64,000 nucleotides of DNA from an uncultured Chlamydiae bacterium (lineage in GTDB: Bacteria > Chlamydiota > Chlamydiia > Chlamydiales > SM23-39): contig CAWHDP010000002.1 of NCBI GenBank assembly GCA_963828125.1, positions 1,720,394 through 1,784,393 on the forward strand, given 5' to 3'. Both the position numbers and the translations under genes were made by a program. Below are positions 8,191 to 51,499 of the stretch, piece after piece. The notes under the pieces were generated by a model. That model saw nothing but the letters and a program-made list of their open reading frames with translations. It did no database searches and was not told the DNA's origin. Numbering within the stretch: the first letter of the stretch is position 1; the number at the start of each line of letters is the position of its first letter.

Positions 8191-8517
8191 TTATTGAACT
8201 CTTCGTTCGATGGGCCTTTGGGAAAAGCGCCAATCGGATTTCCCGATCTGTTCCGTGAGCAAAGTAAACAATCCGGCGCCCCCAAAAAAAGCGCTGAAGG
8301 TTTTATCCCCGCCGAAATAAGAGAGCACTCCGAATAGACCTAGGGCACAGCCTAATTTCGATATGTCGCTTAACTCATCGAAGATCTCATTTGATATGTC
8401 AGCCACCCCTTTTGCTAATTTGGTGAGGGTTGAACCCATACCTTTCAGCGGTGCATTCCATGTAAATGTACGCGTACAAAATTCACACTTTTGGGGTGGC
8501 TTCTGTATAATTTGCAT
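8191..8517 (-). CDS. small hypothetical Gly-rich membrane protein
   Basis: 108 aa. AGGAGA lies 6 nt before the ATG. Hydrophobic, Gly-rich core (GCALGLFGVLSYFGG...FFGGAGLF). The first ~12 codons lie inside a degenerate family-B repeat half. Confidence 0.3.
   Translation of the reverse strand: MQIIQKPPQKCEFCTRTFTWNAPLKGMGSTLTKLAKGVADISNEIFDELSDISKLGCALGLFGVLSYFGGDKTFSAFFGGAGLFTLLTEQIGKSDWRFSQRPIERRVQ
8478..8509. repeat. degenerate half copy of the family-B palindromic element (B6)
   Basis: aaattcacacttttggggtggcTTctgtata compared with the B arm aaatacacttttggggtggccgcagtata. Confidence 0.5.
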
Positions 8518-18199: not shown

Positions 18200-18586
18200 A
18201 TGAAACAAATTATCGCACTCTTTGGCGAGGCTGAAAAAGGGGCCTTCAAAGTGCCCCATCTCCTCGGCAAGCTCCCGCAGCTCGTAGATCTTTTAGGCAA
18301 TCCGCCCGCCGAGAGCCAGGGGCTCTATTTTGCCGTCCAGGCGATCCTTTACAATCGGGAGATCCTTTTTTTCCGAGTGGCCGAAGAAGGATTTAGCCAG
18401 ATCGATTATTTTCAGGGACTTAAATTTCTAGAAAACAGGGAAAAAGTGAAGTCGGTACACGCCATTTGCCTGCCAGGCGTAGGAGACCCTGAAATTCTAG
18501 CCCTCACAGAAGGGGTGTGCCACATTCACAAAAGCCTTCTGATCACCAATCAGAAGGATCTCTATGATTTTCTGACGTCTCAGTAA
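18200..18586 (+). CDS. hypothetical protein
   Basis: 128 aa with GAGAGGA before the ATG. No motif recognised. Confidence 0.4.
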   Translation: MKQIIALFGEAEKGAFKVPHLLGKLPQLVDLLGNPPAESQGLYFAVQAILYNREILFFRVAEEGFSQIDYFQGLKFLENREKVKSVHAICLPGVGDPEILALTEGVCHIHKSLLITNQKDLYDFLTSQ

Positions 18587-18598
18587 CTGATGTCCGGT

Positions 18599-21409
18599 TT
18601 AAAAATCTTTGCCGATTTGCAGAGAGGCAAAGTAGGATTGCATTAAAGAGCCCCATTCTCCCTGCAGATCAATTGTGAAATAGGGAATCTGAGGATGAGA
18701 GGGGAGGAAAGAACAGCGGAACTCTACAGCGGCTAAATTTTGCATTAATAAAGAGCCTGTCGTAATGGAGAAAATCGACGCTGATCCGATGAATAGGGCC
18801 GATGGGGAGCTGCTATAGAAAGGCGTCTGGTTGATATAGCTCCCTTTTTCCATGAATACGAGATCCCCCCAGCTCATGGCAAGAGTTTCATAAAAACGGA
18901 CGCCCCCTTCGCTCCGGAGCAGGGAGGCGTACTGAGAGGGGACTTTGAGAGTCATTTCCGCAGATCCCTTTTCAAGGGATTTTTTTTGCCAATTATTCGC
19001 CCAATCGCACATCCCAAATGGCTGCACGCGTAAGCCTCCGCTTTTAGATAAAATATCTCCGCCGAATTCTGCATGCGGGGACAACACGTAGCCTGTTGAA
19101 TGGCACCGAGAGGTGACGCTTCCCGATGTTTTGCGGATGCTGCGCAATTGATATCCGCCTCCCCAGCAGGAGGCGTTGAAGTAGAGGAAATCGCCTTCCC
19201 AAGACCCATAGGCTACCCCTGCCTCTTGGTTGATATTGGCAGACCCCAGCCCTTTTTGGTAATGGACATGGTTATAGGCATAGCCAGCCCCGACGCCGAT
19301 GAGCCCCCCCTTGCCGATCCGGGCGTCAAATGCGGCCAATCCTCCGGCAATTTCATTGGTAAAACCGGGCGTTGACTCTTGTGTTTTTTCGAAAATAAAA
19401 TCGTTAAAAGGGGTGAACTGCACAGAATAAGGGGCTTGTTTTTGCGCGGGGGTTGAACAGAGCTGTTTACGCTGCGGACTTCCTTTGATTTGCTTCCCCG
19501 CATCGGCCATAAGGCTAACGGTAGCGTCATGTCCGGGGGTTTTGGGTATATTTCTAGAGGACAAAAAGGAGAGTTCGAGCGTTTTGGAAAGAGTCAAGAG
19601 AGAGTTGAAGACGCTATTGACCCAGACGCCGCCTATACCGGACGACCAACGGAGAGGGAGAACGGAAGGAGAGCTCCCTAAAGAGACATAGTAGACGTAG
19701 GGGCTGGGCGCAGGATCCCAGATCCAGCCTTGGCTTCCGTCTGCGCTAAAGGCGCTGCTTTCAGCGCTCATTAGGTAGGTGAGCTGACCGTTTTGAGGAT
19801 CTGTTGGAGACGAGGAAGAGAGATAGTAAATGTAGGGACTTGTCACATTCGTATCCCAGATCCAACCCTGGCTAGCGTCTTGACTAAACGCAACGCCCTC
19901 AGCATTCATCAAAGAGGTCATCTGAGCGGTTTGAGGCTCTGTGGGAGATGTGGCACTGAGATAGTAGATGTAAGGGCTCGGCACGTCCTCATCCCAGATC
20001 CAGCCTTGGCTTGCATTTGGGTTAAACTGGTGGCTTTGAGCATTCATTAGGTTAATGAGGTGAGTATTTTGGGGTTCCGTGGGAGACGTCGCGGAGAAGT
20101 AGTAGATCGAGGGGTTCATGACGCCATAATCCCAGATCCAGCCCTGGCTCGCATCTTGGCTAAATGAGTTCGCTTCTGCATTGATCAGATGGGTCAGCTG
20201 AACGCTCTCAGGGTCTGTTGGAGATGAGGAAGAAAAGAAATAGATGTAGGGTTCTGGTAGGCCTCCGTCCCAGATCCAGCCCTGGCTGGCGTCTTCACTA
20301 AACGCGGAATAGTTTGCATACATCAGATGGGTGAGCTGGGTATCTTGAGGGGCTGTTGGGGATGCGGAAGAGAGGTAGTAGATGTAGGGATGCGTTACGA
20401 TCGGATCCCAGATCCATCCCTGGCTTGCATCTTGGCTAAAATGGGCGCCCTCAGCATTTGTGAGATGGGTGAGCTGAGTATCTTGAGGCACGGTGGGAGA
20501 TGTCGAAGAGAGATAGTAGATATAAGGGCTCGCGAGGCCGACGTCCCAGATCCATCCCTGGCTTGCATCTTGGCTAAAATGGAAGCCGTTCGCATTGAGC
20601 ATGAGGTGGGTGAGTTGAGTATCTTGGGGTATGGTGGGAGATGTGGAAGAAAAATAGTAGATGTAGGGACTCACTACGTTATAATCCCAAATCCAGCCCT
20701 GGCTGGCATCTTCGCTAAACGAACTCCTCATAGCATTTTGTAGATGGGTGAGTTGAGCATCTTGAGGCATGGTGGGAGATATGGAAGAGAAATAGTAGAT
20801 GTAGGGACTCATTACGTTCTTATCCCAGATCCAGCCCTGCCCTCCATCTTGACCAAACAGGAAATTTTCAGCATTTTGTAGATGGGTGAGTTGAGTATTG
20901 AGAGGCATTGATGAGGCAGAGAGGTAATAGATGTAGGGGCTCACTTTATTGTAATCCCAGATCCAACCCTGACTTCCGTCTTGAGCAAACGCACTGATTT
21001 CAGCATTGGTTAGATTAGACAGCTCATTATATTGAGGATCGGTTGGAGATAAGGCAGAGAGATAATAGATGTAAGGGCTTGATACAGAGGCGTCCCAGAT
21101 CCAGCCCTGGCTCGCATCTTGAGCAAACGCGCTGACATAAGCATTCATGAGGTGGTCAAGCTGGATACTTTGAGGGTTTGTGGGAGATGCGGCAGAGAGG
21201 TAGTAGACGTAGGGGGCTGCTGCGCCGTAATCCCAGATCCAGCCCTGGCTTGCACCCTGGTTAAACGCGCTGATTCCAGCATTTGTTAGAGCGGTGAGCT
21301 GAACGTCTTGGGTCTCAATGACCGAGGCGTGGAGCCTAGAGAAACTGGTCAACAGGAGGAGGAGAGAGGGTAGATTGTTTAGGCAGAACGTTTTTTCAGG
21401 TCGGTGCAT
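18599..21409 (-). CDS. autotransporter outer membrane protein with a novel repeat passenger domain
   Basis: 936 aa. Signal peptide, 12 tandem 46-aa repeats, a Ser/Pro linker, and a ~300 aa C-terminal beta-barrel-like region ending ...ASLQIGKDF. Confidence 0.75.
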   Translation of the reverse strand: MHRPEKTFCLNNLPSLLLLLTSFSRLHASVIETQDVQLTALTNAGISAFNQGASQGWIWDYGAAAPYVYYLSAASPTNPQSIQLDHLMNAYVSAFAQDASQGWIWDASVSSPYIYYLSALSPTDPQYNELSNLTNAEISAFAQDGSQGWIWDYNKVSPYIYYLSASSMPLNTQLTHLQNAENFLFGQDGGQGWIWDKNVMSPYIYYFSSISPTMPQDAQLTHLQNAMRSSFSEDASQGWIWDYNVVSPYIYYFSSTSPTIPQDTQLTHLMLNANGFHFSQDASQGWIWDVGLASPYIYYLSSTSPTVPQDTQLTHLTNAEGAHFSQDASQGWIWDPIVTHPYIYYLSSASPTAPQDTQLTHLMYANYSAFSEDASQGWIWDGGLPEPYIYFFSSSSPTDPESVQLTHLINAEANSFSQDASQGWIWDYGVMNPSIYYFSATSPTEPQNTHLINLMNAQSHQFNPNASQGWIWDEDVPSPYIYYLSATSPTEPQTAQMTSLMNAEGVAFSQDASQGWIWDTNVTSPYIYYLSSSSPTDPQNGQLTYLMSAESSAFSADGSQGWIWDPAPSPYVYYVSLGSSPSVLPLRWSSGIGGVWVNSVFNSLLTLSKTLELSFLSSRNIPKTPGHDATVSLMADAGKQIKGSPQRKQLCSTPAQKQAPYSVQFTPFNDFIFEKTQESTPGFTNEIAGGLAAFDARIGKGGLIGVGAGYAYNHVHYQKGLGSANINQEAGVAYGSWEGDFLYFNASCWGGGYQLRSIRKTSGSVTSRCHSTGYVLSPHAEFGGDILSKSGGLRVQPFGMCDWANNWQKKSLEKGSAEMTLKVPSQYASLLRSEGGVRFYETLAMSWGDLVFMEKGSYINQTPFYSSSPSALFIGSASIFSITTGSLLMQNLAAVEFRCSFLPSHPQIPYFTIDLQGEWGSLMQSYFASLQIGKDF
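19670..21301 (-). repeat. 12 tandem ~138-bp coding repeats (46 aa: QLTHLxNAExxxFSQDASQGWIWDxxVxSPYIYYLSSTSPTxPQDT)
   Basis: QGWIWD recurs at aa 55, 101, 147, 191, 237, 284, 330, 376, 422, 468, 514 and 560 of the ORF. Confidence 0.9.
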
Positions 21410-21422
21410 GCTATTGTCCTCG

Positions 21423-21439
21423 GTGAGAAATGCGGGCTA
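21423..21439. repeat. solo terminus of family-A element (A6)
   Basis: gtgagaaatgcgggcta, identical to the right end of A1 and A3. Lies 14 nt upstream of the autotransporter ATG. Confidence 0.6.
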
Positions 21440-21501
21440 GAGAGACGCCCCTTTATTTTTTTCTTATAAGCGAGGATTTTGTTTCACACAATCTCAATTT
21501 C

Positions 21502-24472: not shown

Positions 24473-24584
24473 GGTGTCTCCAGTTCAAAAACTTTCCAAA
24501 GAGGGACATTATGCCATAATAAGTCTGCAAAAGGCAAGCAATATAATATTTTTATCGGAACTCTAATGGTAGATATTCGCCATC

Positions 24585-24830
24585 TAGCCCGCATTTCTCA
24601 CACAGACGCGGAAAATCTGCTCAATCTGTCACGCCATCTTTCGCCAATCGCTCGTCGCTAATAGGAAGAGCCCTATTATACTGCGGCCACCCCAAAAGTG
24701 TATTTGGGCAGCGTCAAAGCTGCCCAAATACACTTTTGGGGTGGCCGCAGTATAGCTTCCTCGCGATTTGCAAAATCTGGCGTAACATCTTGAGCGCCTT
24801 TTCTCGCGTCTGTGTGAGAAATGCGGGCTA
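24585..24830. mobile_element. family-A MITE-like palindromic element, full copy (A1) carrying a nested family-B element
   Basis: Perfect 26-bp terminal inverted repeats, TAgcccgcatttctcacacagacgcg ... cgcgtctgtgtgagaaatgcgggcTA. The internal arms are imperfectly complementary. No coding capacity. Confidence 0.85.
24677..24754. mobile_element. family-B palindromic element (B1) nested in A1, with a TA duplication
   Basis: TA|tactgcggccaccccaaaagtgtatttgggcagc-gtcaaa-gctgcccaaatacacttttggggtggccgcagta|TA. The arms are a perfect 34 bp. The corresponding site in A3 (45973-45984, cctatTAgctcc) is empty. Confidence 0.85.
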
Positions 24831-24996
24831 GGGGAAGAGGAGCTTGACTGATTCGTAAGCCCAATGGAGCTTTTTTTTCCGTGCAAGTAAATCCTTTTCA
24901 AGGGCCCTCTTCATGGTGCTCTCTAACTGTCTTCATTTTTGCAGAAATTGCCATAAATAAACGCAAATATCTAATAATAAGGCATTTGCGATTTCG

Positions 24997-28958: not shown

Positions 28959-29363
28959 ATGAATTTTGTGAAAGTTGTTGTTACTTCTACCTTCAAGAAG
29001 GTTGATGCGGTTATTGAACCCTATGTTGCGAGACTGCAGGGTCAGCCAATGTGGATGCAGGTGGCGGTGCCGCTGACCCTTGAAGCAATGATTGTAGGGT
29101 CTATAGGGGTATGCCGCAATATTTGGGATAACGTCGTGTCAGAGATGTCAAATCCACTTTTAAAGTACTCATCCGGATTTTTGATGGTCTCCTGCGGAGT
29201 CATGGTCGGAGGCCTTCTAGCAATGTGTTTAAAGAGTGTAGTGGAGAGGCCATGGCAAGATGCTGCAAGAAGAGCCGTTGAACCAATGCGGCAGGTGATA
29301 GCCCAGATGCGGAACAGGGTAATGGAGATGGGTACTCATGCTCAAGGAGCTCCCGCAGCCTAA
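28959..29363 (+). CDS. hypothetical membrane protein (two hydrophobic segments)
   Basis: 134 aa with an AT-rich upstream region. Its 3' end (gctcaaggagctcccgcagccTAA) resembles that of the next ORF. Followed by a copy of the groEL terminator. Confidence 0.45.
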   Translation: MNFVKVVVTSTFKKVDAVIEPYVARLQGQPMWMQVAVPLTLEAMIVGSIGVCRNIWDNVVSEMSNPLLKYSSGFLMVSCGVMVGGLLAMCLKSVVERPWQDAARRAVEPMRQVIAQMRNRVMEMGTHAQGAPAA

Positions 29364-29365
29364 GC

Positions 29366-29409
29366 AGAGGCGGGGGATTTCTCCCCCGCCTCTCTTTACA
29401 TCATGCCGC
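29366..29409. repeat. 44-bp direct repeat, copy 1 (duplicated groEL 3' end plus terminator hairpin)
   Basis: agaggcgggggatttctcccccgcctctctttacatcatgccgc is identical to 30317-30360. Confidence 0.9.
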
Positions 29410-29499
29410 TGTAGTTCTGTAGATAAAACATTTAACATTGCTTCAAATACAGATAATTTGTACAATTTGGCGGAATAAATATAAATCTGGAGTGTAAAT

Positions 29500-30309
29500 A
29501 TGATTCAAATTAGAAAGGAGCCTGTACCTGTATATAACGGGCCGGGCCTCAGCGTTAGTCGGACGGAGGAAAGGGATAAAGAACGCGTTAGTGTGATTGT
29601 CAGCAAGAACGCTTTCTCTGATGCTATCCAACAGATTGCCCGGGAGGCGCCTACGTCTGCCGGAATATGTGAAAAACTCCGCAACTGGTTCTGCCCCCGT
29701 CCCCCAATCAAGGAGGGGTTCTTCTATATGCAGGATGGAATAAAAGTCCAGACGCTGGAGATCGTTAGAGGAGAGGAGAAAAAAAATCAAGAAAAAGGGA
29801 TCTATATTGAGGTCATACGGCCAAAACATCCAAGCGGACAGTGCGCTCGATTCTTTTTGAAGTCGATCAGGCCACTCGCTTTTATCTCTTCTATGGCGAT
29901 GACCGCAAATACAACCGAAATGGGTAGAACATTTCTTAGGAATACAGTCGCAGCCGTTTCACAAGCCGCCACAACTGTTTTTAGTGCTTTAAAAGAAAAA
30001 ACGGTTGAACTCTATCCGCAAGCTGTTCAAGTGGCTCAGAGTGTTCCTCCACTAGCCACCGTTTTAGCCATGACTTGGGCCGTTCCTGCCTTTCTAAACG
30101 CATGCCTAGCAGGGAAAAAATTGCAGGCACTCACCATAGCTGGTCTGGGGCTTGCGGTTGGGGTCGTCCCTTATCTCACGGCTCAAACGGGAAGCAGAGA
30201 CGCCTCTTCCGCTGCTCCAAGTAGCCCGTTCAGCGCATTCTCTCAAGGCACTTGTCCCGCTGCTCCAAATAGCCCGTTCAGCGCTCAAGGCACTTGTCCT
30301 GCGACGTAA
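29500..30309 (+). CDS. putative inclusion-membrane (Inc)-like protein with a bilobed hydrophobic domain
   Basis: 269 aa. PLATVLAMTWAVPAFLNACLAG-KKLQ-ALTIAGLGLAVGVVPYLTA gives two TM segments with a 4-aa loop. The C-terminus carries a 48/42-bp tandem repeat (30211-30300). Confidence 0.5.
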   Translation: MIQIRKEPVPVYNGPGLSVSRTEERDKERVSVIVSKNAFSDAIQQIAREAPTSAGICEKLRNWFCPRPPIKEGFFYMQDGIKVQTLEIVRGEEKKNQEKGIYIEVIRPKHPSGQCARFFLKSIRPLAFISSMAMTANTTEMGRTFLRNTVAAVSQAATTVFSALKEKTVELYPQAVQVAQSVPPLATVLAMTWAVPAFLNACLAGKKLQALTIAGLGLAVGVVPYLTAQTGSRDASSAAPSSPFSAFSQGTCPAAPNSPFSAQGTCPAT

Positions 30310-30316
30310 ATGAAGA

Positions 30317-30344
30317 AGAGGCGGGGGATTTCTCCCCCGCCTCT
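30317..30344. terminator. bidirectional hairpin terminator shared by groEL (-) and the Inc-like gene (+)
   Basis: agaggcggggga-tttc-tcccccgcctct: 12-bp GC-rich stem with a 4-nt loop, immediately after both stop codons. Confidence 0.7.
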
Positions 30345-30346
30345 CT

Positions 30347-32307
<1,961 letters not shown>

Positions 32308-36600: not shown

Positions 36601-37221
36601 CCCCAAGAAAAACATCCGGTCAATGAGGCGGTCAATCACTTAACCACCTATTTGGATCAGATGGATCTCACTGCTGAGCAAATGGGGATCTGGTCGGGGA
36701 GCTGCGCGAACTACGCCTACTGGTGGAGGCGGATGAAAAATGATCGGGATCCGTCAAAAATCGTCGGACAAGATAATTTTTTCCGTTATGTGCCGAGGAA
36801 AAACATGGTCCTTCGGTTGGGGGCCAAATCGATCCCTCTCGACGCGTTAAGGGTTTGCGCAGCGGTGCTCACGTGCGGCGCAAAAGTGGAGATCAGCTGG
36901 TCTCCGAATAGTCCCCATAGGCCCGAGTTCGATTGGCTGGAGCTGATCCCGACATTGCCCGTCGTCGACGAGACGGAGGAGCGGTTTCTGGAGAGGGTGA
37001 AAACAGGGAACATCGAGCGGGTTCGATTGGTTGAGCCTCCATCGGAAGCTTTGATCGAGGCGGCAGCCGAATCTCCGGTACACGTGATTCACGCTCCTGT
37101 CCTCATTAACGGAAGGCTCGAGCTGCTCCATTACTTGAGAGAGGCGTCAATCAGCATCGATTATCATCGGTACGGGAATTTGGGATTGAGGGAAGGGGAG
37201 CTCAGAAAACCCATTTTCTAG
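33649..37221 (+). CDS. putA: bifunctional proline dehydrogenase / 1-pyrroline-5-carboxylate dehydrogenase
   Basis: 1190 aa. N-terminal PRODH barrel region and a C-terminal ALDH domain (FPCAIPAGGIAAALAAGNCVLFKPS, ETGGKNAMII, GQKCSA). The TAG stop is the first 3 nt of repeat A2. Confidence 0.85.
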   Translation: MTDYLDETIEILDSVKGKPQSMAERKRLAIELAALMLHEAGRTMTSEERSVQQQLARLMRDPVGKAFTTAMTDECFRSSSHKRVADQMIYLLRQLGIPHYLDWKKRAELFAFRSVGAPIAQFLVPLAMRALRKQTRRVILQAEAGPLEKHLKERRSEGVRLNLNHLGAAILSEAEAKKKLHTYFAHLKNPNIDYLSVKISTTFSQINWLAFDATVTEIGERLRLLYRATMDSNPHKFINLDMEEYRDLDLTVTAFKQVLDEPEFQHYSAGIVLQAYLPDSHHFQKDLTEWAKKRVKNGGAPIKIRIVKGANLAMEQFEASVKGWPQAPYTTKVEVDANYKRMVHYGCIPENARAVRLGVASHNLFDIAFAMLLRLENQVEPYVGFEMLEGMADHIRRVVQRLTGDMLLYCPVANREEFQHAIGYLVRRLDENTGPENFLRHAFGLKPGTDAWENQTALFSQSCDEMNTVSQQPRRTQNRLIHPPAYDPKLPFENESDTDFALPQNRKWAEGIALHWRQEQPKPIPLVIGGKELWANQEGVGHTPNDVKLLYIYAKAHPHHIDEALRCAKEYEKTWGGTTVQHRSQLLARVAQKMRERRGELIGAMMVDGGKIVSEADPEVSEAIDFAEYYRRQMEKMALMKDVRWEPVGSAVVISPWNFPCAIPAGGIAAALAAGNCVLFKPSSDTVLVAWHLVNAFWDAGVPKEALQFVPCSGEGAGNDLIRDERVNLVTLTGGTATAKTFLKMRPDLHLAAETGGKNAMIITALSDRDLAIKDLLQSAFGHVGQKCSAASLAILEAEVYDDPHFLRTLRDAAASLKVGLSWDLSTKINPLIHEPRGDLKRALTTLEEGEDWLLEPKQDSHHPALWSPGIKTGVRPGGFTHMTELFGPVLGLMRADNLHHAIELANAVPYGLTAGLHSLDGREQVKWMEEIEAGNLYVNRAITGAIVRRQPFGGCKASSIGGGSKAGGPNYLCAFMRAKQIGMPQEKHPVNEAVNHLTTYLDQMDLTAEQMGIWSGSCANYAYWWRRMKNDRDPSKIVGQDNFFRYVPRKNMVLRLGAKSIPLDALRVCAAVLTCGAKVEISWSPNSPHRPEFDWLELIPTLPVVDETEERFLERVKTGNIERVRLVEPPSEALIEAAAESPVHVIHAPVLINGRLELLHYLREASISIDYHRYGNLGLREGELRKPIF

Positions 37222-37286
37222 CCCGCATTTCTCACACAGACGCGAGAAAAGGGGCTCAAGATGTTACGCCATCTTTCGCCAATCGC
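37219..37286. mobile_element. family-A element, single-arm/hybrid copy (A2)
   Basis: TAgcccgcatttctcacacagacgcgagaaaaggggctcaagatgttacgccatctttcgccaatcgc. It fills nearly all of the 73-bp gap between the convergent putA and the 301-aa gene. Confidence 0.75.
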
Positions 37287-37294
37287 AAGGTCGA

Positions 37295-44946: not shown

Positions 44947-45888
44947 ATGGGTCCGCGAGCAGGTGTTTTTTGCCACAATGGGTTAGGAGACGGGGTCAAT
45001 TGCCTGGTTCTTTCGAATCAGTTACATTTAAACGGCTGGCGGGTGGACACCTACCAAAATGTCATTGGATCAATGCAGAACTGGTTTCCCCACCTGAAAG
45101 TGGAGCCTTACCCCAGCCCTGACGAACTCCCCCGCATCCTGGGCAGCTACGACTGGTTTTTTGTCGTCCAAAACGATACAGATCCCTTTATCCTTCAGCT
45201 CATTCAGGAAGGGAAGAGGCGATTTCCGGATTTGCTAAAAGTGATCTATCTCTATCCCTCTCCCAACATTGTGAACGAACCTTATTACACCGACTGCTTG
45301 ACCGATCCCACCCTGTCGATTGCCGAAAACATGCGCCTTTTCGCCGAGAAGATTCTCCATCTGCCCAAGATCACCCGGAGCAACGGATTCATCCCCCCCG
45401 CCGGCCTCACATTCCGCAAATACCTCAAACGGATCGCCATCCACCCGACGAGCGGACGGGAGACCCGCAACTGGCCTAAAGAGAAATTCCTCCAGTTCGC
45501 AGGCCATTTGCGGCAATGGGGATACGATCCGGTCTTCATTCCCGGCAAAAAAGAGGGGTGGGAAGGGATCGGCTTTGAAATTGCCCTCTTCCCTACCTTG
45601 GATCTTTTGGCACGCTACCTTTACGAATCGGGATTTTTAGTCGGAAACGACTCCGGCCTTGGCCACCTCGCCTCAGCGATCGGTATCCCAACCCTTACAT
45701 TCTGCCGCAGGAAAAAACTGGCCAATATGTGGGCCCCCAGCTTCCAGAGAGGGGTCGTCGTGACCCCCAGCTCTTGGATTCCCAACATCCGGGGATTGCG
45801 ATTGAGAGACCGACACTGGCAAAAATTTATCTCGGTCGCCAAAGCCAAACGGGCGTTCAACAAACTCGTCCATTTGCCGCTGCACTAA
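44947..45888 (+). CDS. glycosyltransferase family 9 (heptosyltransferase-like)
   Basis: 313 aa from MGPRAGVFCHNGLGDGV. Contains GNDSGLGHLASAIGIPT. The TAA stop lies in the left terminus of A3. Confidence 0.75.
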   Translation: MGPRAGVFCHNGLGDGVNCLVLSNQLHLNGWRVDTYQNVIGSMQNWFPHLKVEPYPSPDELPRILGSYDWFFVVQNDTDPFILQLIQEGKRRFPDLLKVIYLYPSPNIVNEPYYTDCLTDPTLSIAENMRLFAEKILHLPKITRSNGFIPPAGLTFRKYLKRIAIHPTSGRETRNWPKEKFLQFAGHLRQWGYDPVFIPGKKEGWEGIGFEIALFPTLDLLARYLYESGFLVGNDSGLGHLASAIGIPTLTFCRRKKLANMWAPSFQRGVVVTPSSWIPNIRGLRLRDRHWQKFISVAKAKRAFNKLVHLPLH

Positions 45889-46012
45889 CCCGCATTTCTC
45901 ACACATCCGCGGAAAATCTGCTCAATCTGTCACGCCATCTTTCGCCAATCGCTCGTCGCTAATAGGACTCTTCCTATTAGCTCCCTCGCGTCTGTGTGAG
46001 AAATGCGGGCTA
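45886..46012. mobile_element. family-A MITE-like element (A3), without the B insertion
   Basis: TAacccgcatttctcacacatccgcg...ctaataggactcttcctattag...cgcgtctgtgtgagaaatgcgggcTA. Its two ends overlap the stop codons of the convergent GT9 (+) and doxX (-) genes. Confidence 0.85.
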
Positions 46013-46497: not shown

Positions 46498-47661
46498 ATG
46501 TACAATTTGATTGTGATGGGAGGGGGTGCCGCCGGCATGTTTGCCGCGATCAGCGCCAAATCTGCAAACCCGGCAGCCAAGGTGCTCCTTTTAGAAAAAA
46601 GCGGGGTACTCCTCTCTAAAGTGCGCGTTTCAGGCGGCGGCAGGTGCAATGTGACCCACGCCTGCTTCGACCCCGCTGCGCTCATCTGCCACTATCCCCG
46701 CGGCGGCCCCGAGCTTCGCGGCCCCTTCCACCGCTTTCAGCCCCGCGACACGATCGAGTGGTTCGAGGCGCGAGGGGTTTCCCTCAAAGCCGAGCCTGAC
46801 GGCAGGGTATTCCCCGTTACCGACAGCTCGGAGACGATTATCGATTGTCTCCTCTCGGAAGCGAAGAGCCTTGGCGTCGAAATCCTCACCCGTCAACGGA
46901 TAGACCTCATCGTCAAGATCTCCGAAGGCTTTGCCGTCGGCCCTTATCGATCGAGAAAACTCCTCCTCGCCACTGGCAGCGCCCCCCAAGGGCACGCGTG
47001 GGCAGCTCAGCTCGGACACACGATTCAAACACTGGTCCCCTCCCTTTTTACCTTTAACGTCCCCACCTCACCCCTCAAAAATCTCAGCGGCATCTCGGTC
47101 AACCCAGTCGAGCTCAAAATACGAGGCCTAACCCAAAAAGGGGCCCTCCTGATCACCCACTTTGGCTTTAGCGGCCCCGCTGCCCTTAAACTCTCTGCCT
47201 GGGGAGCCCCCGTTTTGCATCAATGCGATTACCGCGCCCCTCTAGCCATTAACTGGCTCCCCGAGCTCAACCCAACCCAAACCCTCGCCATCCTCCAAGC
47301 TCTCAAGAAATCGGCCCCCCAGCGACCCCTTTGCACAGAAAACCCCTTTAAGCTCTCCAAAAACCTCTGGAAAGCTCTACTCAATGATGAAAAACGGCTC
47401 AACGACTTCTCGAACAAAGACCTTCAGACACTCGTTCAGAAACTGCATGAAGATTTTTACCAAATAGACGGCAAGACGACCCACAAAGAGGAGTTTGTCA
47501 CCTGCGGAGGCGTAACGTTAAAAGAGGTCGACTTCAAAACCATGGAGAGCAAAGTGTCCCCTGGTTTATACTTTGCTGGAGAAATTTTAGATATTGACGG
47601 AGTGACCGGCGGATTTAATTTTCAAGCCAGTTGGACAACCGGATTTATTGCTGGCGTTTAA
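46498..47661 (+). CDS. HI0933/BaiN-family FAD-dependent flavoprotein
   Basis: 387 aa. Motifs MYNLIVMGGGAAGMFAAI, VSGGGRCNVT and a C-terminal GGFNFQASWTTG. Confidence 0.85.
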   Translation: MYNLIVMGGGAAGMFAAISAKSANPAAKVLLLEKSGVLLSKVRVSGGGRCNVTHACFDPAALICHYPRGGPELRGPFHRFQPRDTIEWFEARGVSLKAEPDGRVFPVTDSSETIIDCLLSEAKSLGVEILTRQRIDLIVKISEGFAVGPYRSRKLLLATGSAPQGHAWAAQLGHTIQTLVPSLFTFNVPTSPLKNLSGISVNPVELKIRGLTQKGALLITHFGFSGPAALKLSAWGAPVLHQCDYRAPLAINWLPELNPTQTLAILQALKKSAPQRPLCTENPFKLSKNLWKALLNDEKRLNDFSNKDLQTLVQKLHEDFYQIDGKTTHKEEFVTCGGVTLKEVDFKTMESKVSPGLYFAGEILDIDGVTGGFNFQASWTTGFIAGV

Positions 47662-49450
47662 GCTGGAGCGCAAGGCATTGCGCTATTGTCTTTCTAAAGT
47701 CATCCACAGTATCGTTTTGGCCTCTACGCGCTAAAGCGGTTTGAAGGATCAATAGCCGATCTTCCTCCGCACATTTATTGTCTGTTAGATATCGATCCGC
47801 GCATTCATCCCACGAGGTCTCTATAACAAGTAACATATCTTCGCGGTTTTTTATTTGCTCCAGTCGCCGATCAAGATCAGGAATTAAAATTTTCAAACCA
47901 TCAAGGATGTGCAAAGCCTCTTGTTCTGTAAGTGCTAGGGTTGGGCATATAGCCATTAACCCATCTAATACTAATGTCTTTTTATAATGAACAAAAATAC
48001 CATCAATAAATTCGATGCCGCTTAATTGAAGTTTCTTTGATTTTTTCCATTCTTCAAATTTTTGTGTAAAATCTTGTGCGTACTCAGCCAGACAAAAACA
48101 AACTTTCCTTGCTATATATAAGAATGTTTCTTTATTAGATCCAATCGACCTTAATGCCATGCATATTTCGAATGCATATGCATATTGTTCGGGGCTAAAA
48201 TTCCAATTTTTGAAAATCTCTTTGCTAAATACTTGGTTGCAGTGCTGGAGTAAATTCACATTTTTCGTTGGTTGATATAATCTAGCTTCTTGCAGGAAGA
48301 GTTCTTTATTTAAACACAAAAATCCATCTATCTGATGTAGAGTGTTTTCACTGTCATCAATCGATCCAAGTATCGATAAATATTTAAATAAATTGGATTT
48401 ATTTGCAGTTTGATATTTCGGGTCATTCCAAAGTGTTAATAGGCGGAGTACTGTGTTCGTTATTATATCGCAAGACGTGGATTCATATTGGTTAGTTTCT
48501 ATTGTGTTTTCAATCCATTGTCTTGACAAATGAAATTTTATCTTAAGGGTTGGAGCGTCTTTTAAATTATTGTCTAAATCATTGATCGCTAATTTCAATA
48601 GATTGATTTTTTCAGCGTCGAATCGATAGGTTCCAACAGCCCAGCCTATCTCGCTTGTTTCGTAAGGAATGCAATTTAATAATTCTTGTGTTATTTCCAG
48701 TCCCGCCTTAAGGGAACTACTGGCCAAATCTAAATATATGGGAAAGATCCGCTCGATAAAATCTGGAGTCCATAGATGTCCAAAAATCTTTCTCATGCTA
48801 GTTAAAATTTCCGCTTCGAACAGGTATGTTTCAGGGGATACAGACTCAGTGAGTCTTTGCTGTCGAGGCTTAGGAAATACGGGAACCATCTCTCTCAACC
48901 AAAGACTGATCAATTGATCAGAAGATACTTGGGAATAGCCATCCCGTAACAGTTCTTGATCGAGGTTGTCTCTGATGTTTTCTAGCTGCTCGCATATCAA
49001 GTGTTTGTATCCTACCTTGTCTTGCAACATCAATGGATTGCCTTTGGCAGCCACAAATAGGTAATATCGCATTAAAATGTGAAAATTCGGGTTTGCCTGT
49101 TCAGCTGAAATAGCCTGCCGTATTTGTAGCTGGAACTTATTTTTTTGTAGTTGCAGACGGCTTTCTGGTGTTGACACATTATTGATTATAATTTTTGTGG
49201 CAGCATTATATAATTTTTGTTGTTTGCCAGTGAGCCGTGCAGACGGCGATATGGATTTCCATGCAGATTTCAACCCATCCAGCGCCGTTGATTTCAGGTA
49301 TGATTTCAGGCACATATACAACCATCCAAATATTGGGATCACTACGAACCAACGGGATACGGTATGTTGCTGCACAACCCATATCGCATCCTTAGTTATT
49401 GGAAATGTTTTTTGATTAGTAGGCGCTTGGTTAAAATTTTGCACGTTCAT
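47645..49450 (-). CDS. hypothetical protein, member 1 of a tandem paralogue pair (AT-rich)
   Basis: 601 aa. Collinear similarity to the next ORF, e.g. IWVVQQHTVSRWFVVIPIFGWLYMCLKSYLKSTAL vs IWLVQQHTVSKWLAVIPIFGWLYMLVKSCLKSTAL, and LWTPDFIERIFPIYLDLA in both. Confidence 0.6.
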   Translation of the reverse strand: MNVQNFNQAPTNQKTFPITKDAIWVVQQHTVSRWFVVIPIFGWLYMCLKSYLKSTALDGLKSAWKSISPSARLTGKQQKLYNAATKIIINNVSTPESRLQLQKNKFQLQIRQAISAEQANPNFHILMRYYLFVAAKGNPLMLQDKVGYKHLICEQLENIRDNLDQELLRDGYSQVSSDQLISLWLREMVPVFPKPRQQRLTESVSPETYLFEAEILTSMRKIFGHLWTPDFIERIFPIYLDLASSSLKAGLEITQELLNCIPYETSEIGWAVGTYRFDAEKINLLKLAINDLDNNLKDAPTLKIKFHLSRQWIENTIETNQYESTSCDIITNTVLRLLTLWNDPKYQTANKSNLFKYLSILGSIDDSENTLHQIDGFLCLNKELFLQEARLYQPTKNVNLLQHCNQVFSKEIFKNWNFSPEQYAYAFEICMALRSIGSNKETFLYIARKVCFCLAEYAQDFTQKFEEWKKSKKLQLSGIEFIDGIFVHYKKTLVLDGLMAICPTLALTEQEALHILDGLKILIPDLDRRLEQIKNREDMLLVIETSWDECADRYLTDNKCAEEDRLLILQTALARRGQNDTVDDFRKTIAQCLALQLKRQQ

Positions 49451-49552
49451 GTCACAACTATTATTAATTTTATTACTATTATAAACTAATATTTAATATA
49501 AGTAACGGCAAATATCTAACGCGCTAACTTTAAGGCTGTTGTATTTTATTGG

Positions 49553-51499
49553 TTAATGTTGTCGATGTTTAAATGGAGTCCGATCTAATCGTTCGATCGC
49601 CTGGAAAGTACGATCGAAGGGCAACCCCGGCAGCAAGAAATCTGCTAGAAATTGGCTGCCTAGTTGTATCTTTGGATCCCATTTTTTAAATTGTTCGCGG
49701 AATTCATTTTCGTTCTGTAATATGCATAGATACACTTGGTCTATTATAACTTTAAAAGCATCTGCATTATCGCCTTTTGTTCTAAGCGCTAAAGCAGTTT
49801 GAATTATCCATATATTGTCTGTTCTGAACAATGCATCATCCGTTAAATACTTCCCGCATTGATAAAAACAGGCTGTTATAAAATCTGGAATATTTGCGAT
49901 GTTCTCTTTTTCGTTAAGTTGCTCGTAAAAATCGGGAATTAAAACTGTAAGCCCATCAAAGATATGCAAAGCCGCTTCTGGTGTGCGCCCTATCTGTAAC
50001 TCGTTAATCATCAACTCTTGCAGTTGCAATTTTCTTGTATTCTCCATAAAACTGTCAATAAAATGGATTCCACTTGATTTTATTTTCCCCTTTAATTTTT
50101 CCCATTTTTTAAATTCTACTTCAAATTCTTGTTCGCAGTCTTCAAGACAACGAACAACTCTGTGCTCTATCCTCCAAAACATGTCTGCATCAGATCCAAT
50201 GGGTCTTAATGCCATGCATATTTTGAATAAACGTTTTTTGTCTGCAAAATCCACATCTTTGAGAATTTTATCGCTAAATACTTGGTTGCAGTACTCGAAG
50301 AAGGTGACTTCTGCATCGCGCTTGTAGGTTCGATCTTCTCCTTGGAAAAGATCTTGGTCTAACGACAAGAACCCATCTATCTGATGTAGAGTTTGTTCGC
50401 TGTCGTCAATCGACCCAATTTTCAATAAATATTTAAATAAATCTGATTTGTTTTCAGTTTGATATTTTGGATCATTCCAAAGTGTTAATAGGCGGATTAC
50501 GGTGTTCATTATTACGTCGCAAGACGTGGATCCATATTGGCCGGGGATTGTGTTTTTAATCCATTCTTCTGGCGAATTAAACCGCTTGGTAAGTGTCTGA
50601 TCTTTCTGTAATGTGTCATTGAGATTAGCGCACGCTTGTTTCAATTTGTTTAGTAGATCGACTTGGATCCGATGTTCCCCGAGAATCTCGTGTAATTTTG
50701 CGTTGTCATACGGAAGACAATCTAACAAGGCTTGTGTTATTTCCAGTCCCGCCTCAAGGGGATAAGTGGCCAAATCTAAATATATGGGAAAGATCCGCTC
50801 GATAAAATCTGGAGTCCACAGATCGCCAAAAATAGTTCCCATCCTCGTTAAAATGTCCGCTTCGAGGAGATAGGTTCGGTGATCTACACATTCCAGGTTG
50901 TGCTTTTGAGCTTTAGGAAATGCGGGAAGCATCTCTCTCAGCCAGAGATCAATCAATTGCTCAGAGAATCGTTGGGAATAGCCGCTTTGCGAAAGTTCCT
51001 TACCGTATGATGCCATCACATTCATTAGCTCCTTGTATACATTGTCCTCTATCATCTTGTCTGGGATCGAGTTTATATGTCCTCCATCGGAAAGGAATAG
51101 GTAGTATCGCGTTAAAATGTGAAAATTCGGCTTTTGTTGTTCAAGTACAAAAGCTTGTTGTATTTCTCGCTGAAACCTATTTTTTTGTACTTGCAGGCGG
51201 CTTTCTGGCGTTGACAAATGGTTGAGCAGCACGTCCGTGGCGGCCCCATACAATCGTTGTTGCTCAGGATTGAGTTTTGCAGACGGTGCGACTGTGATCA
51301 CCGCATTTTTCAACCGATTCAGCGCAGTTGATTTCAGGCATGATTTGACCAGCATATACAACCATCCGAATATGGGGATAACTGCTAACCATTTAGATAC
51401 GGTATGTTGCTGCACAAGCCATATGTCATCCGTCTCAATTGAGAACTCATTCTGAATAATGGGCGCATTATTTTGGTTAAAATCGTTTGGCCGAATCAT
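49553..51499 (-). CDS. hypothetical protein, member 2 of the tandem paralogue pair (AT-rich)
   Basis: 648 aa. See the previous entry. The upstream regions of both genes also share blocks (actattata..., taa[c/t]ggcaaatat). Confidence 0.6.
   Translation of the reverse strand: MIRPNDFNQNNAPIIQNEFSIETDDIWLVQQHTVSKWLAVIPIFGWLYMLVKSCLKSTALNRLKNAVITVAPSAKLNPEQQRLYGAATDVLLNHLSTPESRLQVQKNRFQREIQQAFVLEQQKPNFHILTRYYLFLSDGGHINSIPDKMIEDNVYKELMNVMASYGKELSQSGYSQRFSEQLIDLWLREMLPAFPKAQKHNLECVDHRTYLLEADILTRMGTIFGDLWTPDFIERIFPIYLDLATYPLEAGLEITQALLDCLPYDNAKLHEILGEHRIQVDLLNKLKQACANLNDTLQKDQTLTKRFNSPEEWIKNTIPGQYGSTSCDVIMNTVIRLLTLWNDPKYQTENKSDLFKYLLKIGSIDDSEQTLHQIDGFLSLDQDLFQGEDRTYKRDAEVTFFEYCNQVFSDKILKDVDFADKKRLFKICMALRPIGSDADMFWRIEHRVVRCLEDCEQEFEVEFKKWEKLKGKIKSSGIHFIDSFMENTRKLQLQELMINELQIGRTPEAALHIFDGLTVLIPDFYEQLNEKENIANIPDFITACFYQCGKYLTDDALFRTDNIWIIQTALALRTKGDNADAFKVIIDQVYLCILQNENEFREQFKKWDPKIQLGSQFLADFLLPGLPFDRTFQAIERLDRTPFKHRQH

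Follow-up and report, generated by a model that had tools for sequence, protein, structure and literature searches.

An autotransporter of an uncultured chlamydia with a passenger of 12 Trp/Tyr-rich repeats predicted to fold as propeller blades

We analyzed a 64,000-nucleotide stretch of DNA (the window; contig CAWHDP010000002.1 of assembly GCA_963828125.1, positions 1,720,394 to 1,784,393) from an uncultured Chlamydiae bacterium, and in it an intact minus-strand open reading frame (ORF) at 18599–21409. The ORF starts with ATG, encodes 936 aa plus a stop codon, and its product ends in ...QIGKDF. By sequence comparison and structure modeling, this product combines a known secretion module, that of a classical autotransporter, with a family of repeats not described before, whose predicted fold is of the propeller type. 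An earlier interpretation of the same DNA, made from its letters alone (the sequence-only reading), had proposed an autotransporter with 12 copies of an uncatalogued 46-aa repeat, and the ORF, the 12 units and a Pfam-detected barrel were all confirmed here. We consider it likely, with a probability of roughly 0.7, that the protein is a classical autotransporter whose surface-exposed passenger of propeller blades serves as a binding platform for attachment.

The passenger (aa 37–587, at 19649–21301 on the minus strand) was characterized by repeat analysis, by an alignment of 58 units from this protein and four relatives, and by AlphaFold2 (AF2) and Foldseek. It consists of 12 tandem units of 44–47 aa each, which we anchored on the motifs QGWIWD and PYIYYL. 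QGWIWD is present 12 times, with spacings of 46, 46, 44, 46, 47, 46, 46, 46, 46, 46 and 46 aa. In the DNA, Tandem Repeats Finder reported a 138-nt period across 19806–20983 (8.6 copies, 70% matches), and a second repeat search recovered 11 in-register copies of the 138-nt unit. The sequence-only reading had placed the array at 19670–21301; this extent agreed with our unit boundaries, except for the start coordinate, which is 19649. The consensus of the 58 units was xLxxLxNAxxxxFSxDASQGWIWDxxxxxPYIYYLxAxSPTxPxxx, with W21 and Y33 invariant and L5, F13, G20, I22, W23 and D24 conserved in at least 90% of the units. The passenger as a whole is acidic (4 Lys plus Arg vs 47 Asp plus Glu), has no cysteine, and contains 4.3% Trp and 7.7% Tyr. 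Searched against Pfam at E ≤ 10, the protein matched no repeat family, the only matches being the autotransporter beta-domain PF03797 and two noise matches. NCBIfam gave no match anywhere in the protein. The Trp/Tyr repeat defines a new family, suitable for addition to the domain databases.

The fold of the passenger was predicted with two AF2 models. In the full-length model, built from a five-sequence alignment, residues 30–578 had a predicted local distance difference test (pLDDT) score of 80–94, and each unit had exactly four strands (48 over the 12 units). A second model covered units 1–6, using an alignment of eight non-overlapping six-unit rows, and reached a pLDDT of 93.7 and a predicted template modeling score (pTM) of 0.88. 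When both models were compared with the Protein Data Bank (PDB) using Foldseek, all 50 matches listed per model were beta-propellers, among them WD40 tandem propellers, an archaeal S-layer YVTN propeller, G-beta, TolB and eIF2A. The E-values went down to 1.5e-16 for the full-length and 2e-10 for the six-unit model, with a probability of 1.00. Because AF2 gave four strands per unit and Foldseek matched only beta-propellers, we read the units as predicted four-stranded propeller blades. The sequence-only reading had offered a beta-solenoid and a new fold as the two alternatives, and the models point to neither.

How the blades are arranged is less certain. A single large ring, a pair of rings and an open arc are all conceivable for the 12 blades. 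The full-length model had a pTM of 0.57, close to 550/936, the passenger share of the chain, suggesting that AF2 treats the passenger as a single rigid body. Superposed on solved propellers, the six-unit model reached TM-scores of only 0.36–0.53: the fit was poor to the six-bladed TolB (TMq 0.36–0.37), moderate (about 0.45) to the seven-bladed G-beta and YVTN propellers, and best to eIF2A (0.53), whose propeller is nine-bladed (PMC4125824). A single very large toroid from one chain, or a rigid open spiral, in place of two ordinary six-bladed propellers, is a doubtful proposal at present. It is consistent with the pTM, with the unlikeness of the six-unit model to a closed six- or seven-bladed ring, and with the non-canonical unit counts (7–9) of the related Gly-rich passengers described below. 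The current record for a single chain is ten blades (sortilin), and 12 blades are reached only by oligomerization, in Ph1500 (PMC9218822). If true, this arrangement would be the largest beta-propeller formed by a single chain and, among classical autotransporters, the first documented case of a propeller-type passenger. How a self-closing fold could leave the cell and reach its final structure without the vectorial stacking of a beta-helix, thought to drive passenger secretion, would then need an explanation.

The likeness to propellers could not be traced in the sequence. None of the known propeller families (WD40, Kelch, YVTN, LVIVD, BNR/Asp-box, fungal fucose lectin) was significantly matched in Pfam at E ≤ 10, and profiles of the passenger had no meaningful sequence relatives in the PDB. 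The S-x-D-x-S-x-G-W of the unit may resemble the Asp-box motif, S-x-D-x-G-x-T-W. In a search of 1.84 billion proteins with the unit profile, the best matches outside the family were propellers of the fungal fucose lectin type (PF07938): protein P0009 matched with E = 6.8e-9 over seven stretches, and P0014 was also matched. Aromatic-rich propellers are commonly lectins. The passenger might thus be a carbohydrate-binding lectin related to the AAL-type, six-bladed fungal fucose-specific propellers, with which it has in common a similar period (~50 aa) and the strand motif P-x-[VI]-Y-Y-L, more narrowly P-[RY]-[VI]-Y-Y-L. We regard this relationship as unlikely, since the profile–profile overlap was confined to 10–16 columns around this strand (hhalign probability 37–60%), PF07938 itself did not match the protein, and the conserved aromatic residues lie within predicted strands, where they look structural rather than ligand-binding. 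Membership in PF07938 was rejected on the first of these grounds. Lectin activity as such is possible, the motif being what speaks for it. Three further candidates, P0010 and P0012 (GWVWDK proteins with a type IX secretion system sorting domain) and P0013, were rejected as well, having only a short motif in common with the repeat.

The C-terminal part of the protein was assigned as a translocator beta-barrel (aa ~661–936, at 18602–19429 on the minus strand, last residue Phe). Pfam detected PF03797 at residues 675–852 with E = 2.7e-18 and 67.1 bits, against a cut-off of 26. The residues up to 936 aligned with relatives whose PF03797 match spans profile positions 1–248 of 255. A profile of the barrel family, made from 16 sequences, matched the barrel of EstA (3kvn) with E = 3.6e-4, the only solved structure matched, and the C-terminal residue was Phe or Trp in all 16 members, in most of them Phe. 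The sequence-only reading's description of a typical C-terminal barrel ending in Phe was borne out by these matches. The barrel region had a pLDDT of only ~22 in the full-length AF2 model, and the fold assignment for this region comes from sequence homology.

Array and barrel are joined by a conserved junction (aa 588–660, at 19430–19648 on the minus strand), recognizable in the five-protein alignment and alignable with relatives that have only the barrel in common with our protein. It carries the motifs W-x-x-G-[IL]-G-G-x-W-V-N-S-x-x-N-S-L-L and L-[MI]-A-D-A. The first coincides with a predicted helix (593–606), located ~55 residues before the first barrel strand, in the region of pLDDT ~22. 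This helix could be the alpha-helical linker that runs through the barrel pore in type Va autotransporters. The Ser/Pro linker reported by the sequence-only reading is present, as SLGSSPSVLPL, but comprises only ~11 residues and runs into the junction. At the other end of the protein, aa 1–28 (MHRPEK / LNNLPSLLLLLTSF / SRLHA|SV; 21326–21409, minus strand) resemble a signal peptide. By inspection, this segment has a basic n-region and a hydrophobic stretch (LPSLLLLLTSF), followed by LHA|S. The N-termini of the orthologues are likewise hydrophobic and close in small residues. Together, the signal-peptide-like N-terminus, the passenger, the conserved junction and the PF03797 barrel with its terminal Phe are the sequence features expected of a classical (type Va) autotransporter, the class to which the available sequence evidence assigns the protein.

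Autotransporters in chlamydiae bring to mind the polymorphic membrane proteins (Pmps), and the gene could encode a divergent Pmp with a beta-helical passenger. The source genome is chlamydial, an autotransporter barrel is present, and putative autotransporters of Waddlia and Protochlamydia were earlier filed as Pmp-like, with a predicted beta-helix (PMC2878342). More generally, the few autotransporters of environmental chlamydiae have been described as Pmp-like beta-helices (PMC2878342, PMC2811131). Like the Pmps, our protein is a chlamydial autotransporter with a repetitive passenger and is presumed to be a surface adhesin. However, the absence of Pmp motifs stated in the sequence-only reading held up: GGA[ILV] does not occur at all, and FxxN occurs only twice, at aa 8 and 462, unrepeated. 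The Pfam models for the Pmp repeat and middle domain had no match at E ≤ 10, and the predicted structure has four-stranded blades in place of a beta-helix, with only propellers found by Foldseek. A Pmp identity is therefore highly improbable.

Among other autotransporters, the closest in layout were EstA and XatA. The Pseudomonas aeruginosa EstA (3kvn) is laid out as our protein appears to be, with a signal peptide, a passenger that is not a beta-helix, and a C-terminal PF03797 barrel with a terminal aromatic residue, but its passenger is a globular GDSL esterase, whereas here 12 predicted propeller-type blades stand without a recognizable catalytic domain. XatA is a type Va autotransporter with tandem repeats in the passenger, for which a propeller has been proposed (PMC3426408). 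It differs in being proteobacterial and in having six copies of an LGxL repeat without sequence relation to the Trp/Tyr repeat. This prediction for XatA, made from motifs only, was the only propeller suggestion that we found for an autotransporter passenger (PMC3426408). Classical autotransporters are the textbook exporters of beta-helices. A 2022 review recognizes three types of passenger (a beta-helix, an enzyme on a beta-helix, and an enzyme by itself), counts >90% of the solved ones as beta-helices, and never mentions a propeller (PMC9289746). A propeller-blade passenger would thus be unusual for a classical autotransporter. Outside of autotransporters, our array resembles propellers amplified from a single blade, such as WRAP of Nostoc (Pereira and Lupas 2022; PMC9218822), in its 40–50-residue blades, its internal similarity (58% here) and its signs of amplification and turnover. 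These propellers differ in belonging to recognized propeller sequence families and in not being autotransporter passengers; the 14 blades of WRAP form two seven-bladed rings (PMC9218822).

We searched for relatives in three ways. A word-index search with the full-length protein retrieved four metagenome proteins (P0001–P0004) of 914–946 aa and 44–53% identity. A scan of 185,579 species-representative genomes added one more full-length relative, L003, in a Chlamydiae metagenome-assembled genome (MAG). When 1.84 billion representative proteins were searched exhaustively with the unit profile in HMMER, three full-length proteins and four fragments were returned, followed by weak, motif-level matches. 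The five full-length relatives (P0001–P0004 and L003; 44–53% identity) were all from uncultured Chlamydiae and had 11–13 units each. Within these collections, the conserved Trp/Tyr repeat occurs extremely rarely, and only in a small clade of uncultured chlamydiae.

The barrel was more widespread than the repeat. The genome scan also gave 15 loci (L004–L018) matching only residues ~590–936, mostly in MAGs labeled Parachlamydiales, Simkaniaceae, Rhabdochlamydiaceae, Chlamydiales or Chlamydiota. Word-index searches with the C-terminal domain and with the 16-sequence barrel profile retrieved only one and three proteins, respectively. In the 15 loci, junction and barrel (residues ~575–936 of our protein) aligned at 28–40% identity, with many invariant positions; the matches from the genome scan had 31–40% identity over ~340 aa. 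Their passengers are also tandem arrays, of different unit sequence: 7–9 Gly-rich units of 46–50 aa (SVAINxxGxGIIGG...PAYAALVxPxGTLTxL), with four hydrophobic segments per unit, matched by neither Pfam nor NCBIfam. Homology between the Trp/Tyr and the Gly-rich repeat was not supported: the two look alignable by eye strand for strand, but hmmsearch was not significant and hhalign gave E = 0.65 (likewise not significant). We therefore claim for the two kinds of passenger only a common architecture on a homologous barrel. Examples of the Gly-rich type are L007:8624–10915 and L006:8678–11020. Several genomes carry multiple paralogues; the MAGs HK-STAS-VERR_A-6 and OFTM116 have three or four such loci each.

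The sequence-only reading had further considered the DNA repeats similar enough for copy-number change by slippage or recombination. Accordingly, the array could be a contingency locus, in which frequent slippage or recombination alters the copy number and varies a surface antigen within populations. The repeats are direct and in frame (138 nt), a 39-nt identical run joins the adjacent units 6 and 7, and the unit number differs among orthologues: 11 in P0003, 13 in L003, and 12 in P0001, P0002 and our protein, as well as in P0004 when its degenerate first unit is included. The units within the protein are 58% identical to each other at the protein level and score ~145 on average (BLOSUM) against each other, compared with ~107 against any orthologue unit; the similarity to orthologues shows no excess on the positional diagonal. 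Because its own units are more alike than those of orthologues, and positional orthology is missing, we conclude that the units were homogenized or replaced in the course of evolution.

Frequent change is another matter. Mean pairwise DNA identity between units was 68%, with a maximum of 82% (units 4 and 5), so that the near-identical tandem DNA repeats of phase-variable loci were not found in this array. The longest identical run between two units had a median of 14 nt. Among the 66 unit pairs, it reached at least 20 nt in nine, at least 25 nt in two, and exceeded 30 nt in one, the 39-nt pair. The closer pair P0001/P0002 has kept strict positional orthology of its units. Exactly 12 units occur in four of the six full-length proteins despite 44–53% sequence divergence, and this near-constant unit count suggests a structural constraint on the number. 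We therefore consider a contingency locus very unlikely. Of the slippage claim, turnover over evolutionary time remains; repeats this divergent are a poor substrate for slippage at high frequency, and that part of the claim is weak.

The exact 936-aa product was missing from a collection of 15 billion proteins, in which the products of two neighboring genes, a peroxiredoxin and a metallo-beta-lactamase (MBL)-fold hydrolase, were present as exact matches (MGB7977889.1 and MGB7977888.1). In the source record, the autotransporter gene may carry a flag or a different start, or may lack annotation altogether. Taken with the mobile-element remnant that adjoins the start codon, the missing entry might also speak for a decaying, non-functional ORF, or for a repeat produced by metagenome assembly. 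This is hardly conceivable: the frame is intact over 2.8 kb, independent assemblies contain full-length relatives with matching architecture and conserved core residues, and units of 68% identity are too divergent for an assembler to collapse or expand.

On one side, the autotransporter gene is flanked by enolase and a small convergent ORF that has no annotation; on the other lie the peroxiredoxin and the MBL hydrolase. Upstream of its ATG we recognized a likely Shine-Dalgarno sequence (AGGA, 21417–21420, minus strand, 7 nt before the ATG). Past its stop codon, at a distance of 42 nt and within the 3' end of the convergent ORF (18200–18586), a hairpin with a T-run (18535–18557, minus strand) looks like a terminator by consensus match only. 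Promoter and terminator scans of the region gave no more sites than shuffled sequence. Within the window, there was no second autotransporter and no second copy of the Trp/Tyr repeat. A second, distant autotransporter barrel (27% identity) was seen at L003:1245–1979, ~3 kb upstream of the Trp/Tyr-repeat gene of that contig.

Gene order was not conserved between the genomes, as none of ten tested neighboring genes of the window was found in L001, the P0002 locus, or in L003. At L001:12829–13701, a tyrosine recombinase/integrase gene with Phage_integrase domains directly follows the orthologous autotransporter gene. The adjoining integrase gene and the lack of synteny leave open that the autotransporter gene moves between chromosomal sites.

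The mobile-element remnant is a solo terminus, CTAGCCCGCATTTCTCAC, of a family of elements resembling miniature inverted-repeat transposable elements (MITEs), recognized by pattern matches in the window. It is located at 21423–21440 (minus strand), 13 nt upstream of the ATG, and had been noted in the sequence-only reading at 14 nt. Its terminus pattern matched nine times in the window, compared with 0.06 matches expected by chance. This non-coding family has a full copy of 248 bp at 24584–24831, with 32-nt inverted termini (CTAGCCCGCATTTCTCACACAGACGCG...). Further termini were found at 37218–37290, 45885–46012, 56438–56500 and 60100–60140, the last with two abutting termini that form a hairpin; several shorter or partial copies are intergenic. 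A second short repeat family, ACACTTTTGGGGTGGCCGCAGTATA, was found at 24677–24754 and, nearer the window ends, at 8485–8512, 62354–62381 and 63681–63708. The copy at 24677–24754 lies within the MITE-like element, where it forms a palindrome of 36 nt without mismatch.

Two other features of the window are a low-GC island and a pair of hairpins. The island (47645–51499; GC 0.37–0.42, compared with ~0.52 elsewhere) has a tandem pair of paralogous ORFs (601 and 648 aa), which are 74–85% identical in blocks of their DNA and had no Pfam match. This ORF pair may have been horizontally acquired or be fast-evolving. Two 54-nt copies of a sequence with a GC-rich hairpin (GAGGCGGGGGATTTCTCCCCCGCCTC), 94% identical, at 29362–29415 and 30313–30366, flank the ORF 29500–30309; they resemble a pair of terminators or a small repeat element.

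Returning to the autotransporter with its passenger of propeller blades, we propose the following sequence of events. The N-terminal signal peptide would carry the protein across the inner membrane and probably be cleaved. The C-terminal ~280 residues would insert into the outer membrane as a beta-barrel, presumably with the help of the beta-barrel assembly machinery (BAM), and the ~550-residue passenger would pass to the cell surface and be exposed there. Each of the 12 units would fold as a four-stranded antiparallel blade, and neighboring units would pack in a propeller-like manner. The near-invariant aromatic residues F13, W21, W23, Y31, Y33 and Y34 lie in the predicted strands and probably make up the core between blades, and the exposed faces are probably built from the variable loop positions 6–12, 25–29 and 40–46. 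The outcome would be an acidic disc or arc, free of cysteine, that would most likely bind host cells or surface glycans. By analogy, a surface adhesin or binding protein is the most likely function, since adhesion is the commonest role of autotransporter passengers (PMC9289746) and is also the role of the chlamydial Pmps. The passenger would take the place that the beta-helical Pmps have in the Chlamydiaceae, by means of a different fold. These results provide a concrete candidate adhesin for uncultured chlamydiae, and a test case for how a beta fold other than a solenoid can be exported by the type V route. They also suggest that, in chlamydiae outside the Chlamydiaceae, the part played by Pmps in the pathogens may fall to another, so far undescribed class of surface proteins.

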